This document shows, one piece after another, positions 56,325 to 63,098 of a stretch of DNA of 64,000 nt. The DNA is from Cyanobacteriota bacterium (GTDB lineage: Bacteria > Cyanobacteriota > Cyanobacteriia > Thermostichales > Thermostichaceae): positions 64,001 through 128,000 of the forward strand of contig JANRIL010000019.1 in assembly GCA_033764955.1 (NCBI GenBank), written 5' to 3'. Under the pieces are notes generated by a model. The model saw nothing but the letters and a program-made list of their open reading frames with translations, was not told the origin of the DNA and searched no databases. Position 1 is the first letter of the stretch. Each line of letters begins with the position of its first letter. The position numbers and the translations under genes are program-made.

Positions 56325-58775
56325 TCAACAAGCCACTTCCGAGTCGAGATGAAAAGGGATCCGCACGGTAAAGGTGGTCTGGTTGTTTTCACTTTCGACA
56401 GCGATACTGCCATCCAAAAGAGAAACCCGTTGCTGAACCAGGGCTAAGCCTAATCCTGTACCCCCTTGCCGCCAGGGATCCGCATTGGGCACTCGATAAA
56501 ACTTCTCAAAAATATGGGGAAGCTCACGACTAGGAATTTCTACCCCCGTATTGCGGACAACAATCATCAAATGTTGTCTATTGGCGGTTACCTGCACAAA
56601 AATATCCTCATGAGGGGGGGTATATTTGCAGGCGTTGTTGAGCAGCTCGCTCAAAATTTGCTCCAGACCCAACGGCAGCGCATAAATTTGAGGCAAGTTT
56701 TGGGACAATTCGACGGTTAAGGTTTGTTGACGGCTTTGGGCACGGTCATAAAAGGGCTTGATAACCGTTGGGATCCAACTTTGTAGATCCATCTGCTGAA
56801 ATTGTTGGGGATCGGGATTGGCTTCCAATCGTTGCAGATCCAGCAGATCGTTAATCAGGCGAATTTCCCGCTCACATTCCTCCTGCAAAATTTGCAGATA
56901 ACGAGTGATTTTGGCAGCATCCTGCAAATGGGTTACCTGGGGATGAAGCAGGCTAGTCAGGAGTTGAATAGCCATCCGAATACTGGAAAGTGGTGTACGT
57001 AACTCATGGGAAACGGTACTCAAAAAGTCATTTTTGAGGGCATCCAGACGACGTAGTTCTATGACTTGAGCATTGAGTTGGGCGGTGCGATCCTGAACTT
57101 TGGCCTCTAAATCTTGGTTGAGGGTTTGGATTTGCCCAAACAGTTGACCCTGTTGAATGGCAATAGCTAACTGATCGGCAATCGCCTCCACCAGAACCTT
57201 TTCAGAATTGAGCCACTGTGCCGATAGATTTTCACTGGCTAAGGCTAAATATCCCCAAAAAGTTGTGGGGTTGGATTCAGAAATAGGTTGGGGGATCTGC
57301 GAACTCAGGGATAGGGGTACAAATAGAGAAGTCCTGGCCTTATCCATTAACCAATGGGGGGATGGTTGGGATCCCGTCTGCTGGATGAAGGTCATGGATT
57401 CATTACTACCAGAAGCTAATGACGGAAGACTCGCTTCTGCCGCTAAGAGAGTGACGATTTCAAACCGTTTGAGATGCTGGGTAATGGGATGGGGTTGATC
57501 GGGCAAAATAGAGCCTAATTCATCCAAATGACTGTGATGGCGGCGATAGTCGGCTCGATTGATCCAAACCGCTTGTTCGGGCAGATATTGGGCGATAATC
57601 ACCTGATCCACATGCAAAATTTGGCTAATGGCTGCCACAGCCGTTGAAAAGATATCTTCCAAATGCAGCGAGTTGCGAATGGCTTGAATGACTTGGTTGA
57701 GGGCACGTTCCCGTTGTGCCTGTTGCTGACTGTGCTGATAAAGTTGACTTTGTTGAATAGCACTTTCCACCTGAGATCCCAGGTTTTCCAAAAAGTGCAT
57801 CTGCCAGGAATGCCAATGGCGGGGATGCAGGTAGTGATGCACCACCAATAGACCCCAAAACTCCTCCCCCTGCATGAAGGGAAAACAAAGCAGCGACTTA
57901 ATGGGAGGGGCGATCGGGCTAAAAGGAATGTCAGCAAGAGGAGACTGAAACAGATCCGGTAGAGCATAGCTGCGTCCGGCCTGCAAATGGGGGAGCAGTT
58001 GTTGACACCACTCGCGGTTGAGGGAGGTTTGCAGGAGGCTGGGGTGCTCGGCCTGATGAGCCTCAGCAATCACAAGCGGGGATCCCTGCGGCCATTTACG
58101 ACAGATCAAGACACTATCCGCCTGCAAAAACTGCCGCACCTCTTGCACCGTCGTGGTCAAAATATCATTTAAATCGAGGGATTGACGAATATGAGCTGTG
58201 ATGGTGCTCAGCAGTTGTTCTTGGCGATTTTGTTGTTGCAGCGTTTCGAGGGTGCGACTCGCTTGGAGTAGCCGTTGCATCCGTTGTCGCAACACCGCCC
58301 AATGGATAGGCTTGGTCACATAATCGGCGGCTCCAGCGGCAAAAGCCCGATCCACCGAAACACTATCCTCCAAACCTGTGATCATCAAAACAGGGGTATT
58401 GTGGCTATTGGGCAGGGCTTTCAGGTGGCTACAACAGGCAAACCCGTCCATAACGGGCATGATGGCATCCAGCAGGATAATGTCCGGTTGCAACTGTTGA
58501 AAGAGTCGCAAACACTCCTCCCCATCAATGGCCTCGACAACGCGATATCCTTCCCCAGCTACCAGATGACGTAGCCATTGTCGCGTGACCCGATCATCAT
58601 CCACCAATAACACCAAGGGATCCATGGTGGGGGTGGGGGGTGGGATGGGGTCGAGGGTCTCTAGAAGCATCGATAGCTGGAGATATGGAGGAACCTGCTG
58701 AGCAGGATCAAGCAGCAGCCCATGTTGAGAAACACGAACTGTATCTATTTTCAACCGCGAAATGGCTGGGCGCAT
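56325..58775 (-). CDS. Hybrid sensor kinase: receiver-GAF-GAF-HisKA-HATPase
   Basis: LLVDDD..ILLDAIMP..YVTKP receiver; two GAFs; [23 protein letters not shown]. Start may be 58670 or 58625. Confidence 0.92.
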   Translation of the reverse strand: MRPAISRLKIDTVRVSQHGLLLDPAQQVPPYLQLSMLLETLDPIPPPTPTMDPLVLLVDDDRVTRQWLRHLVAGEGYRVVEAIDGEECLRLFQQLQPDIILLDAIMPVMDGFACCSHLKALPNSHNTPVLMITGLEDSVSVDRAFAAGAADYVTKPIHWAVLRQRMQRLLQASRTLETLQQQNRQEQLLSTITAHIRQSLDLNDILTTTVQEVRQFLQADSVLICRKWPQGSPLVIAEAHQAEHPSLLQTSLNREWCQQLLPHLQAGRSYALPDLFQSPLADIPFSPIAPPIKSLLCFPFMQGEEFWGLLVVHHYLHPRHWHSWQMHFLENLGSQVESAIQQSQLYQHSQQQAQRERALNQVIQAIRNSLHLEDIFSTAVAAISQILHVDQVIIAQYLPEQAVWINRADYRRHHSHLDELGSILPDQPHPITQHLKRFEIVTLLAAEASLPSLASGSNESMTFIQQTGSQPSPHWLMDKARTSLFVPLSLSSQIPQPISESNPTTFWGYLALASENLSAQWLNSEKVLVEAIADQLAIAIQQGQLFGQIQTLNQDLEAKVQDRTAQLNAQVIELRRLDALKNDFLSTVSHELRTPLSSIRMAIQLLTSLLHPQVTHLQDAAKITRYLQILQEECEREIRLINDLLDLQRLEANPDPQQFQQMDLQSWIPTVIKPFYDRAQSRQQTLTVELSQNLPQIYALPLGLEQILSELLNNACKYTPPHEDIFVQVTANRQHLMIVVRNTGVEIPSRELPHIFEKFYRVPNADPWRQGGTGLGLALVQQRVSLLDGSIAVESENNQTTFTVRIPFHLDSEVAC

Positions 58776-58904
58776 CCTGATTTCTACTACAGAAACCGAT
58801 CAATTGGTTGCTCTGGAGTTACAAGAGTCTGGAGGCACAACCTCCCGCACAAACTAGGACGTTCTTCCCCTTGTTCCCCACTCCTTCCCCACCGCATCTG
58901 TTCT

Positions 58905-58992
58905 GGGCAACACCCCAAATCAGCGGTGGCTAGTAGCCTTGGTAACCCAACCAACTATCTTTATACCGTCCGCTGCATTTGGATTATTAGAC
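58905..58992 (-). other. Integron attC recombination site
   Basis: Minus strand: GTCTAAT (R'') AATC CAAAT-G-CAGCGG ... CCGCTG ATTTG GGGT GTTGCCC (R'); paired arms with an extrahelical G; 18 nt after a stop codon. Confidence 0.8.
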
Positions 58993-59010
58993 CTTGCGCA
59001 AAGACATCAT

Positions 59011-60117
59011 TCATAGTATTACCGCTTCAACTGGTCGCCGTAGTGATCGCTGAGTCTCAGTACCATATCCAAAACGGACAACTAGATCTGGTCTGAGATC
59101 ACCAATGCCAAGATAAGTAGCGAATTGTGGACGTAATGATAAAACCTCAACTGGCTGGTTCAAAAATGCATTTTTTATGCCTAGTGCAGTTGCTTGCAAG
59201 GCGAACCGCTCGTAACATCGTCCTGTTTCAACCCAATGTTCCTTATCGTTACGCTCAGACACAAATACAGCAATCCCCGCAGAGGTACGAATGTGTTTAG
59301 CATATTTGTCGTTTTCACTCTTGGTTGTAAAAAACAAATTCAACAATCTCATCCCCAGCCAGCGAGGAACAATAGGATTTCCTGACGAACCAGCAAATAG
59401 CCCATCCCTTTTGCTCAAGACTTCGTCATGGCTGAATCTAATCCAAGATTTCAGTTCCTCAACAAAGGCTCGATCATTCATCTGCGCTGTATTACCCTGA
59501 ACAACATACTCCAGGATGTTCTCAATTTGGGCTTTTTCGGTGATCAGCAATATCCTGACCCCATTGCCCTGCCCTGTCGCTTCAAGGGAGGCTAAATCAG
59601 CGGTGCTTAATTTTCTACCGTCATACTCAACTCGACTGCATTGACGTTGAGGAATCGCATTAAAAAGGTCAGAAGATATTATTTTTGAGGGTTCTAAGGT
59701 GACTTTCACCCTGTCATCAACAGAATCGAAATGTGCAAATCCGTGCTTGCCAAATGCCTGTGCCGCTTGAATCAGATTTTCGGCAGCACAGCCTAAACTC
59801 ACAAACAAATGATGGTCATCAGGATCAACAGCAGGGCATCTCCGTGCCCAGTCTGGCAAAATTGAAATGGTTTGATCTGCAATCGTGAATTTCCAGCATT
59901 GCGTATTATGACTCGACGCAGCTAAGGTAGCGTAGCGAACCAGTTCATGATTGACTGCTATCAGGTCGTTCGTTGAGTTATCTAAGGTATGTCGCCAAGT
60001 ATCACGGACGGTATTGTTGTATCGACCGTTAGACTGATGAGCAGTTCCTATTGCATATGTCATTGCTCCTCCCGTCAGTGCAGTAAGACCTAAAATAATT
60101 TGTCTTCGACTCAGCAT
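59011..60117 (-). CDS. Acg-family FMN-binding nitroreductase-like protein with Tat signal
   Basis: MLSRRQIILG twin-arginine signal; ATLAASSHNTQCW, VDPDDHHLFVSLGCAAENL, FLNQPVE, RSLRRP. Confidence 0.88.
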   Translation of the reverse strand: MLSRRQIILGLTALTGGAMTYAIGTAHQSNGRYNNTVRDTWRHTLDNSTNDLIAVNHELVRYATLAASSHNTQCWKFTIADQTISILPDWARRCPAVDPDDHHLFVSLGCAAENLIQAAQAFGKHGFAHFDSVDDRVKVTLEPSKIISSDLFNAIPQRQCSRVEYDGRKLSTADLASLEATGQGNGVRILLITEKAQIENILEYVVQGNTAQMNDRAFVEELKSWIRFSHDEVLSKRDGLFAGSSGNPIVPRWLGMRLLNLFFTTKSENDKYAKHIRTSAGIAVFVSERNDKEHWVETGRCYERFALQATALGIKNAFLNQPVEVLSLRPQFATYLGIGDLRPDLVVRFGYGTETQRSLRRPVEAVIL

Positions 60118-60127
60118 CAGTAAACCC

Positions 60128-60544
60128 TCAGTCTGAAACTTGGAGTGATACCCTACGGATTTTTGCAGCGATGAGCGGGGATAGCATTAACCAGACTAAG
60201 CCAATAGGCATTAAGCCACCTTGCAACAAATTATAGTCAGCACCGATTTGCTGCCATGAATAGCCTAAGACAAAAAAACCCAGACTAATCTCGAATACGA
60301 CGGTTAGCAGCAGCCACAGTATACCAATGCCCAAAAGTTGGGAAAAGTGCGATACATGAAGCCATCGGATAAATAACGTGGCGATCATCAACACCAATAC
60401 TGATCCAATAGCAAATGAAACTTGATGAGCAAGAGGATCACCCAGAAATGGCACTAGGCAAAAGATCCGAGCAGCACCATTTAAGCTCTCCACAAGAATA
60501 AATACAAGCCAAATCACAATGCTTTTCAGGATGATTATGGTCAT
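60128..60544 (-). CDS. Four-TM hypothetical membrane protein
   Basis: Four hydrophobic segments; WLLLTVVFE..LG, ADYNLLQGGL. Confidence 0.85.
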   Translation of the reverse strand: MTIIILKSIVIWLVFILVESLNGAARIFCLVPFLGDPLAHQVSFAIGSVLVLMIATLFIRWLHVSHFSQLLGIGILWLLLTVVFEISLGFFVLGYSWQQIGADYNLLQGGLMPIGLVWLMLSPLIAAKIRRVSLQVSD

Positions 60545-60665
60545 ATGTCATGTCCTTACAACCAAAGTGCCCTCTAGCTATGAGAGTAAAACTGAAAACT
60601 GAGTAACTTGTGAGAAATTCTTGCGATTATAATTCCGATCAGTTGGTTTCGGTCTAACAAAGCGG

Positions 60666-61631
60666 TTAAGCGGGGAAAAGGGTTTGGAGCACCTGAGCGG
60701 GCAAAATAGAGGTAATCTTTTGATCGGCAGCCCGCACCCAGCGATAGGGGCCTTGGGAGGGCAGGAGGCGATGGGGATCCGTTGGGCCAAAGAGAGCCAG
60801 CAAAGGGGTTTGGGTGGCAACGGCTAGGTGCATGGGGGCGCTATCGGTGCAGAGGAGCAGGGTGGCTCCGGCGATCATGCCCGTCAGTTGACTGATCTGG
60901 CGAGGACGGGTTAGGTAGAGATCCGGTTGCCGATCCAAAAAGGCTTGGGCTAGCTCCTGATCCTCAGGGCCAATCAACAGAACCATCGGCAGCTCAGGCC
61001 GTTTTTTCTGAAAGCCCTGCATGATCTCTAGCCAACGCTCCACCGGATAAATCTTTTGAATACCCTTGTTGATGGAGATCTGACTGGCTCCGGGATGGAT
61101 CAACACATAATCAGACTTGTCGCCAAACAAACGCTGCCGCTCCTGTTCACACCAATCGAGAGCCGGCTTTTTGAGGCGAATTTGCGGTAGGGGAGTGGTG
61201 GTAGCCCCCGGAAATCCTTGCAGCAGATCCGCATACATACTCGCGGCATACTGCTCCTCTTTGAGGGGGACTGCATCCGTTAACCACGGACCTGTTGTTT
61301 GTCCATAGCCCACCCGCTTGGGGATCCCGGTCAACCAGAGCAGCAGCTTCAGCCCCCAGGAACGCCCTAGACTGACAACCCCGTCATATTGCCGCTCCCG
61401 AATCCGCCCCAAGAGATCGCTGAGATCCCCCAAAGACACCTGTTCCTTAAAGGCAAAGGTGAGGACACGATCCACGGAAGGACAGACCTCATAAGCCCCC
61501 GCCGCTCGTGGTTCCACCATCACCTCGATTTCCGCCTGGGGAAACCGTTGCCGCAGCCCCGCCAGTGTGGGAAAAAATAAGATCTGATCGCCGATTCCAC
61601 CGGGAACAAGGGCTAAAATACGCTCGTGCAT
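60666..61631 (-). CDS. Glycosyltransferase family 9 (heptosyltransferase-like)
   Basis: PGGIGDQILFFP, LIHPGAS, CTDSAPMHLA, ALFGPT. Confidence 0.92.
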   Translation of the reverse strand: MHERILALVPGGIGDQILFFPTLAGLRQRFPQAEIEVMVEPRAAGAYEVCPSVDRVLTFAFKEQVSLGDLSDLLGRIRERQYDGVVSLGRSWGLKLLLWLTGIPKRVGYGQTTGPWLTDAVPLKEEQYAASMYADLLQGFPGATTTPLPQIRLKKPALDWCEQERQRLFGDKSDYVLIHPGASQISINKGIQKIYPVERWLEIMQGFQKKRPELPMVLLIGPEDQELAQAFLDRQPDLYLTRPRQISQLTGMIAGATLLLCTDSAPMHLAVATQTPLLALFGPTDPHRLLPSQGPYRWVRAADQKITSILPAQVLQTLFPA

Positions 61632-63001: not shown

Positions 63002-63098
63002 GCCTAACGCCCTGCCGCTCAGCCGCGAGCGGCGGGCGCGGCTGAGAGAAGGAGTCTAATGCAACTCGCCGCTTGTCGGCTGCAGCGGCTGGTTAGGC
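63002..63098 (-). other. Second integron attC site (GC-rich type)
   Basis: Minus strand: GCCTAAC CA GCCGCT-G-CAGCCG-A-CAAGCGGCG ... CGCCGCTCG CGGCTG AGCGGC AGGGC GTTAGGC; canonical RYYYAAC/GTTRRRY ends and two extrahelical bases. Confidence 0.85.

Follow-up and report, generated by a model that had tools for sequence, protein, structure and literature searches.

A 64,000-nt stretch of a Cyanobacteriota genome (GenBank assembly GCA_033764955.1, contig JANRIL010000019.1, positions 64,001 to 128,000; hereafter "the window") carries a complete two-gene integron cassette, closed by its own attC recombination site, that stands alone between a glycosyltransferase gene and a hybrid histidine kinase gene. 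The reading that best accounts for this arrangement, to which we assign a probability of roughly 0.8, is that an integron integrase (IntI) inserted the cassette at a plain chromosomal G/TT, where the slash marks the crossover point. This type of event, an insertion at an attG target that is represented by a single attC site without a nearby integrase (SALIN), is already known, and the present case is a clean natural example in a host that seems unusually rich in them. The solitary attC is secured in three ways: by an independent covariance model, by a boundary rule that operates in the same genome, and by a copy of the cassette within an array in another cyanobacterium.

All coordinates of the locus refer to the window, and the cassette is read on the minus strand. 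A first-pass annotation of the sequence had already described the segment as a complete cassette, and every one of its coordinates proved correct when checked base for base on that strand.

The solitary attC belongs to the attC family of the resident integrons

The host genome contains a family of repeats of ~87 nt with the form ..CTAAC-AAnn-arm-loop-arm-..-GTTA.., and the arms of the window hairpin recur across the genome. An alignment of 25 attC sites of this genome, none of them from the window (alignment A1), is the basis of the covariance model R1. In A1, 81.2% of the cells pair, compared with 27–54% when the partners are slid. Changes on both sides are seen at 12 of the 21 pairs, and the covariation score is 0.283 vs 0.124 in shuffles. 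Model R1 scores the window attC at 58.8 bits (E 4.8e-15), at exactly nucleotides 58905 to 58992 and over the full length of the model (1–87 of 87 positions), with pairing at 17 of the 21 model pairs (four flagged). An nhmmer model built from six other sites finds the same site at E 8.1e-11 in a search of the whole genome. A run of an attC covariance model on the genome was a check named in the first-pass annotation, whose claim of a complete cassette with an attC is borne out by the R1 result, the boundary rule and the array copy.

Searches for integron integrases with TIGR02249 (curated cut-off 265 bits) revealed two intact intI genes. One is located at C9:19–960 (463 bits, no stop), on the window's own contig about 122 kb away, and the other at C38:63588–64529 (451 bits, no stop). 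Several intI fragments are present elsewhere in the genome, and within the window TIGR02249 has no match, intI fragments included. Seven co-oriented attC sites lie beside the intI gene of C9 and five beside that of C38, in clusters (for example, C9:1694–7943 and C38:53284–61831) that diverge from intI in the classic integron layout. Because family members are arrayed beside intI, these repeats are the attC sites proper to the organism's integrons, and the window site is one of them. The statement that the cassette has no integron platform is therefore correct locally, where neither intI nor an att site is found, and is wrong for the genome, which has two intact intI genes with arrays, one of them on the same contig.

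To count these sites, we accepted R1 matches at E up to 0.01 (150 of 1152 candidates were scored) and grouped them into clusters by gaps of at most 4 kb. The 3.8-Mb genome has at least 80 such sites, of which 45 fall into 15 clusters and 35 stand singly, distributed over at least 30 contigs. Two of the clusters are those beside the intact intI genes, 13 have no complete intI alongside, and the window attC is one of the 35 single sites. The nearest attC-like match to it scores 28.8 bits; the distance is 4010 nt, and two conserved genes (DegT and GT9) lie in between.

Consecutive sites in the clusters provide a rule for cassette boundaries. The reverse complement of the R'' box of a site equals the R' box of the preceding site at 4/4 variable positions in 18 of 30 consecutive pairs, whereas it equals the site's own R' box in only 1 of the 30. 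The corresponding means are 3.23 for the preceding core and 1.77 for the site's own R', with a background of 1.78. In the window, the inverse core of the attC matches the cassette's own start, GTTAGAC, at 4/4 variable positions and the downstream GTTGCCC at 1/4, and therefore the window obeys the array boundary rule of its genome. The first-pass annotation had noted this same relationship from the one site, and its reading agrees with the arrays of the genome. Among all 35 solitary sites, an exact start match of GTT plus four nucleotides is found upstream in 14 and downstream in 8, a difference too small to be of use. Base composition gives a clearer contrast, with AT-richer DNA upstream than downstream at 32 of the 35.

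The cassette is part of an array in a related cyanobacterium

One of 40 relatives, designated G010 (same family, different genus), has a 90% identical copy of the whole cassette, over 1679 nt, at L002:1501–3178. Homology to this copy starts exactly at GTTAGACC (query position 643, window position 60658), and in G010 the start point is the core site of the preceding attC (L002:1422–1507, 61.8 bits). The G010 contig carries three co-oriented attC sites: one further upstream, the preceding one, and the cassette's own downstream. The copy lies between attC sites, and therefore the cassette is part of an array in G010. Recognition by R1 on L002 is strand-specific (61.8 vs 17.6 bits).

The same boundary is visible in metagenomes. 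Contigs from four runs (three studies) carry the cassette, with shares of 0.05–0.08 and cover essentially limited to about 58906–60723. In two of these runs, X3 and X4 from one study, contigs match the window over 58983–60658 and then, from exactly 60658, continue into unlike sequence with the look of an attC 3′ arm.

The two-gene pair is kept in three further loci, namely L071 (the G010 contig, by identical R1 scores), L073 and L072, and a further locus, L106, holds the oxidoreductase gene. An attC follows the genes in L071 and in L106, and L073 and L072 have neither an attC nor the first bases of the cassette. Whether homologs of the two genes are followed by attC, a check named in the first-pass annotation, is thus answered differently by different loci, and the pair also exists as ordinary genes.

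Homology among the cassette copies falls off inside the attC, with the leader, the R'' box and the loop center common to the window, G010 and L106. The arms at window positions 58905–58992 (CAAATGCAGCGG / CCGCTGATTTG) are of the type that prevails in the host genome, and the arms at L071:4126–4218 and L106:1203–1288 (CCGTTGCAC.. / ..GGGTGAAC..) are of the other type. Judged from these sequences, the host-type arms suggest that attC arms may be homogenized within a genome. They also hint that the cassette may have resided in the lineage's own integron system and been moved by the resident integrase.

Geometry of the attC hairpin

The R'' box of the window attC is GTCTAAT (58992–58986), and its R' box is G(58911)/TTGCCC (58910–58905). 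The R'' triplet is AAT in place of AAC, and the GTT triplet of R' is intact. Between the boxes, the L'' arm reads CAAAT[G]CAGCGG[A]CGG and, past the loop, the L' arm reads CCA-CCGCTG-ATTTG. Both the folds and R1 pair CAAAT-G-CAGCGG with CCGCTG-ATTTG. The free energy of the hairpin is unremarkable (z −1.5 and −2.2) and is not decisive alone. A search of the locus against Rfam to E 10 yielded nothing attC-like, with just two chance-level matches (CyVA-1 and mir-766).

The bracketed, unpaired G and A belong to the gene-sense (top) strand, on the AAC arm. The bottom strand, which is the plus strand of the window, reads CCG[T]CCGCTG[C]ATTTGG, where the last unpaired base is T, the first is C, and a 6-bp stem separates them. 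According to the available text of Nivina et al. (PMC5027507), the bottom strand of attC carries 5′-AAC in R' and has its extrahelical bases on the opposite arm; of these, the first is "usually a G" and the last a conserved T, and the two must be separated by a stem of 6 bp. The unpaired bases of the bottom strand of the window attC likewise sit on the arm opposite 5′-AAC. The extrahelical G to which the first-pass annotation drew attention is thus right in geometry. As a feature of the recombining strand we reject it, since this G is on the top strand, and the recombined bottom strand carries C and T. From its sequence, the attC looks functional.

We also considered the proposal that the AAC-to-AAT change locks the cassette in place, and this was rejected because AAT is common in the attC family. 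Four other members have the same R'' variant (C9:6465, C42:77270, C30:21363 and C20:47364), and the first of these stands in an array next to intI. The base that differs is paired with the G on the left side of the crossover. If anything hinders excision, it may be that the new R' box (TTGCCC) matches R'' poorly, rather than the AAT.

Foreign composition of the insert

The insert differs from its flanks in base composition. In 300-nt windows, its guanine-plus-cytosine (GC) fraction is 0.42–0.47 within 58900–60699 and 0.52–0.60 just outside. The palindrome GGATCC occurs 191 times in the 64-kb window, a ~7-fold excess over the 26.8 occurrences in shuffles (0 of 100 shuffles reach 191), and the longest gap without it (58623–60775, 2152 nt) spans the insert. 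At one GGATCC per 335 nt, the Poisson chance of a site-free stretch of 1754 nt is ~0.005. These data agree with the first-pass annotation, in which the insert was described as AT-richer than its flanks and free of GGATCC. The low GC content and the missing GGATCC are a foreign composition of the cassette, and GGATCC is a host-wide palindrome signature.

Junctions and the proposed insertion at a plain G/TT

The features of the locus are as follows, in the direction of transcription.

60666..61631, minus strand: GT9 (heptosyltransferase-family) glycosyltransferase gene, upstream flank (Pfam PF01075 Glyco_transf_9, E 1.6e-25)
60651..60665, minus strand: left junction, host CCGCTTT, then G(60658) / TTAGACC (60657–60651) (sequence reading)
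58911..60657, minus strand: cassette proper, from TTAGACC through the G of the core site, 1747 nt (copy in L002, GC content, absence of GGATCC)
60128..60544, minus strand: gene 1, 138 amino acids, hydrophobic membrane-type protein (open reading frame)
59011..60117, minus strand: gene 2, 368 amino acids, Acg-family oxidoreductase that binds flavin mononucleotide (open reading frame, NCBIfam NF047509)
58905..58992, minus strand: attC site, 88 nt (covariance model R1, nhmmer, folds, family covariation)
58905..58910, minus strand: TTGCCC, the portion of the R' box that would come from the target under the cassette model (1/4 variable positions vs the reverse complement of its own R'')
56325..58775, minus strand: hybrid response-regulator/GAF/histidine-kinase gene, downstream flank (Pfam Response_reg, GAF, HisKA, HATPase_c)

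The TAA stop codon of the GT9 gene occupies 60668–60666, and G(60658) is the eighth base past it, with the first bases of the cassette, TTAGACC, directly after. A leader of 113 nt precedes gene 1, a gap of 10 nt separates the two open reading frames, and the attC begins 18 nt past the TGA of gene 2 in the same orientation as both genes. The kinase gene starts (58775) 129 nt beyond the attC. G/TT is present at both cassette junctions and fits the published 5′-GWT-3′ consensus for attG.

The left flank is conserved. The GT9 gene is present in all 18 loci fetched from relatives and is conserved to its last residues (66–73% identity) in 9/9 relatives' loci, and its divergent DegT neighbor is found in 7 of these 9. 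Model R1 detects no attC in the left flank, at the 3′ end of GT9, and no further attC between GT9 and the kinase gene. Given the lack of an att site at a left junction that lies 8 nt past the stop of a conserved gene, integrase insertion at a plain G/TT is the best reading. The empty site that this reading predicts is, on the minus strand, ...CCGCTTTG/TTGCCCAGAAC..., that is, CCGCTTTG/TTGCCC, as deduced from the junctions.

We propose that a circular two-gene cassette, probably excised from one of the genome's own arrays, entered the 140-nt spacer between the GT9 and hybrid kinase genes. The resident IntI would have joined the bottom strand of the attC, in its folded form, to a chromosomal 5′-G/TT-3′ by attC × attG recombination, and the outcome would be the SALIN seen here. 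The cassette is co-oriented with GT9, an arrangement in which read-through from the GT9 promoter, or a promoter in the 113-nt leader, could drive expression.

Several observations weigh against this interpretation. Both the insertion event and its target sequence are read from the junctions alone. In the 1.7 to 8 kb fetched past GT9 from each of 18 relatives, neither the kinase gene nor the cassette genes are present, so that no empty site was seen. Among 24 relatives, none yielded a full-length ortholog of the kinase. The genes past GT9 are ordered differently in different members of the set of 18, and this position may therefore once have held a larger array or have been rearranged later. 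The assembly is a 48-contig draft with 89% completeness in which the attC arms are repeated ~80 times, though as short stretches, and there is a small chance of a misjoin at a repeated attC. A scan for promoters and terminators gave counts no higher than in shuffles, a result that bears on the proposed expression. Finally, the first unpaired base of the recombined strand is C, where PMC5027507 describes it as "usually a G". The window attC departs from that description because its bottom strand carries C there; the paper's wording is of what is usual, not obligatory, and C is the first flipped-out base in nearly all 25 members of A1 (alignment column 17).

A metagenome scan with GT9 returned two distant loci and no close relative. 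The first-pass annotation's claim of insertion at a non-att GTT remains the most economical reading and fits the 5′-GWT-3′ consensus, and the empty junction that would accompany it was found neither in relatives nor in metagenomes. The comparison of the GT9-to-kinase interval by which that junction was to be located did not reveal it, the kinase gene being downstream of GT9 in 0 of the 18 relatives.

Alternative explanations for the lone cassette

The cassette could instead be all that is left of an integron or cassette cluster (CALIN) that decayed downstream of GT9, its neighbors and any intI having been deleted; in that case nothing was newly inserted at a non-att site. Clusters of attC that lack a complete intI number 13 in the genome, which also has several intI fragments, the region past GT9 is plastic in gene order among the 18 relatives, and at a distance of 4 kb the same strand carries a weak attC-like site (63002–63098). 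Even so, we consider this history unlikely. The cassette starts exactly at G/TT, 8 nt past the stop of a conserved gene, and random deletion would not end at the crossover base. Moreover, the window contains no intI fragment, no other attC lies between GT9 and the kinase gene, and the conserved DegT and GT9 genes separate the window attC from the site at 63002–63098.

Slightly less probable again is that the cassette is real and one of its flanks is secondary, either because a later attC × attC (or attC × GTT) exchange brought in the kinase gene or because the draft is misjoined at a repeated attC. Some 80 related sites are scattered across 30 contigs or more, relatives have no full-length ortholog of the kinase, and excision at nearby genomic sites can alter genomes, as reported in the available text of Loot et al. 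(10.1101/2022.09.11.507474). The left joint, however, has no repeat on either side, and the stretches that the window attC shares identically with other attC sites, at 17–28 nt, are short for a misjoin. The core GTTGCCC equals no other R' box among the listed family sites, and contamination of the assembly is 0.23%.

If the segment were no integron cassette at all, it would be an ordinary horizontally acquired islet of two genes, with a hairpin that serves as a terminator or is an unrelated repeat. The absence of an Rfam match and the ordinary folding energy are compatible with such an islet, as are the close homologs of the gene pair in L073 and L072 that have no attC. This explanation is very improbable, being already contradicted by the array copy, the R1 score and the strand specificity of that model: R1 finds the site at E 4.8e-15, family members are arrayed beside intI, and in G010 the cassette lies between attC sites with its boundary at the same base and a strand preference of 61.8 vs 17.6 bits.

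The two cassette genes

Gene 1 matched no Pfam or NCBIfam family. Its product shares 83% identity with its counterparts in L071 and L073 and 76% with that in L072. Gene 2 scores 290.9 bits with NCBIfam NF047509 (cut-off 199) and matches Pfam Nitroreductase at E 4.9e-7, with a two-domain nitroreductase fold. Homologs of this oxidoreductase occur in many cyanobacteria at 64–90% identity and, at ~60%, in Betaproteobacteria and others. As read from the translation, the N terminus of gene 2 has an RR-containing, signal-like stretch that may be a Tat-type signal.

Between copies, the ratio of nonsynonymous to synonymous substitution rates (dN/dS) is 0.26–0.29 for gene 1 and 0.18–0.27 for gene 2, and there are no stops. 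By these ratios, both genes are under purifying selection and are maintained, like the cassette copies elsewhere. The first-pass annotation had presented the locus as a case of cassette domestication. We do not retain this term for a cassette that has an intact attC and whose genes are selected just as other copies are.

Comparison with known systems and the wider attC family

Cassette insertion outside integrons has been demonstrated in the laboratory only recently, and lone genomic attC sites were long set aside as possible false positives. In the available text of Loot et al. (10.1101/2022.09.11.507474), IntI is reported to insert cassettes at genomic 5′-GWT-3′ sites, and SALINs are described as common, with 3400 of them in 2469 of 21,105 genomes (1847 genomes with one only and 622 with more). 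Some genome-inserted cassettes do excise according to the same text. The insertions described there resemble the window locus in that one cassette, together with its attC, stands apart from attI and intI, in the G/TT crossover, and in the placement of the cassette between genes, past the end of a host gene and in the same orientation. They differ in that they were made in Escherichia coli and Vibrio cholerae with IntI1, IntI2 and IntI3, whereas the present case is natural and cyanobacterial, with its own IntI and attC family. In addition, the SALIN genomes in that text mostly have one SALIN, in contrast to the two intact integrons and 35 solitary sites found here. The text also cites resistance cassettes at secondary sites in RSF1010 and pRAY (aadB). 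These are likewise expressible non-att insertions just downstream of a promoter or gene, but they are plasmid-borne resistance determinants, whereas the present cassette is chromosomal and encodes an oxidoreductase and a membrane protein.

Cury et al. (2016, PMC4889954), in the available text, noted integrons in Cyanobacteria and discarded single attC sites as possible false positives. The CALINs of that report are, like the 13 clusters of the present genome, attC sites outside complete integrons. The window locus differs from them in having one site, which is validated by homology, the boundary rule and the array copy.

A dispersed family of attC sites

The V. cholerae repeats (VCRs) of the sedentary chromosomal integron of that species are known for a host-specific uniformity. 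The present genome is similar in having a large family of like attC sites (87 nt here), to which the window attC conforms by its host-type arms. It differs in that the sites are dispersed as 15 small clusters and 35 singles rather than forming one long array. One of the V. cholerae sites, VCR2, is described in the available text of PMC5027507.

These features prompt a broader, tentative proposal, to which we would give slightly less than even odds. Resident integrases may have scattered dozens of cassettes outside integrons as a genome-wide habit, here and in many cyanobacteria of the class. The scattered sites belong to an attC family in which C, not G, is the first flipped-out base and whose arms would be kept uniform in each genome, even when the same cassette has other arms elsewhere. 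If this is true, cassette insertion at non-att sites would rank among the main ways in which these chromosomes gain genes, and would not be a rare accident. The genome, together with the wider cyanobacterial attC family with its apparently unusually frequent events, is a good natural system in which to study the rate of cassette exit, expression from host promoters and re-excision.

In a separate count over 41 genomes of the class, 32 had R1 matches to the same attC family (E up to 1e-4); the numbers ranged from 0 in several genomes to 96, 54 and 33 in others.

Additional attC-like and repeated elements

The weak attC-like hairpin at 63002–63098 (minus strand; R1 28.8 bits, E 8e-6) has a GC fraction of 0.69, and its ends, GCCTAAC and GTTAGGC, are perfectly complementary. 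It sits past the end of the DegT-type aminotransferase gene, 8 nt from the stop codon, and there is no obvious gene upstream on its own strand.

A conserved 21-nt tag (about TTATCGAATTGATGACAGACC) directly follows the G of the last attC in several clusters or single sites of the genome (C4:15558, C7:103492, C11:33787, C11:52279, C23:45267, C27:18906, C27:112545 and C38:64781). A search for a partner on the left side, or for the tag in inverted form, found neither. One tag copy lies ~250 nt past the stop of the intI gene on C38, and beyond the tags the sequences are unrelated and host-like. The tag could represent one half, the right one, of a favored landing site; alternatively, it could mark where a larger mobile unit ends.

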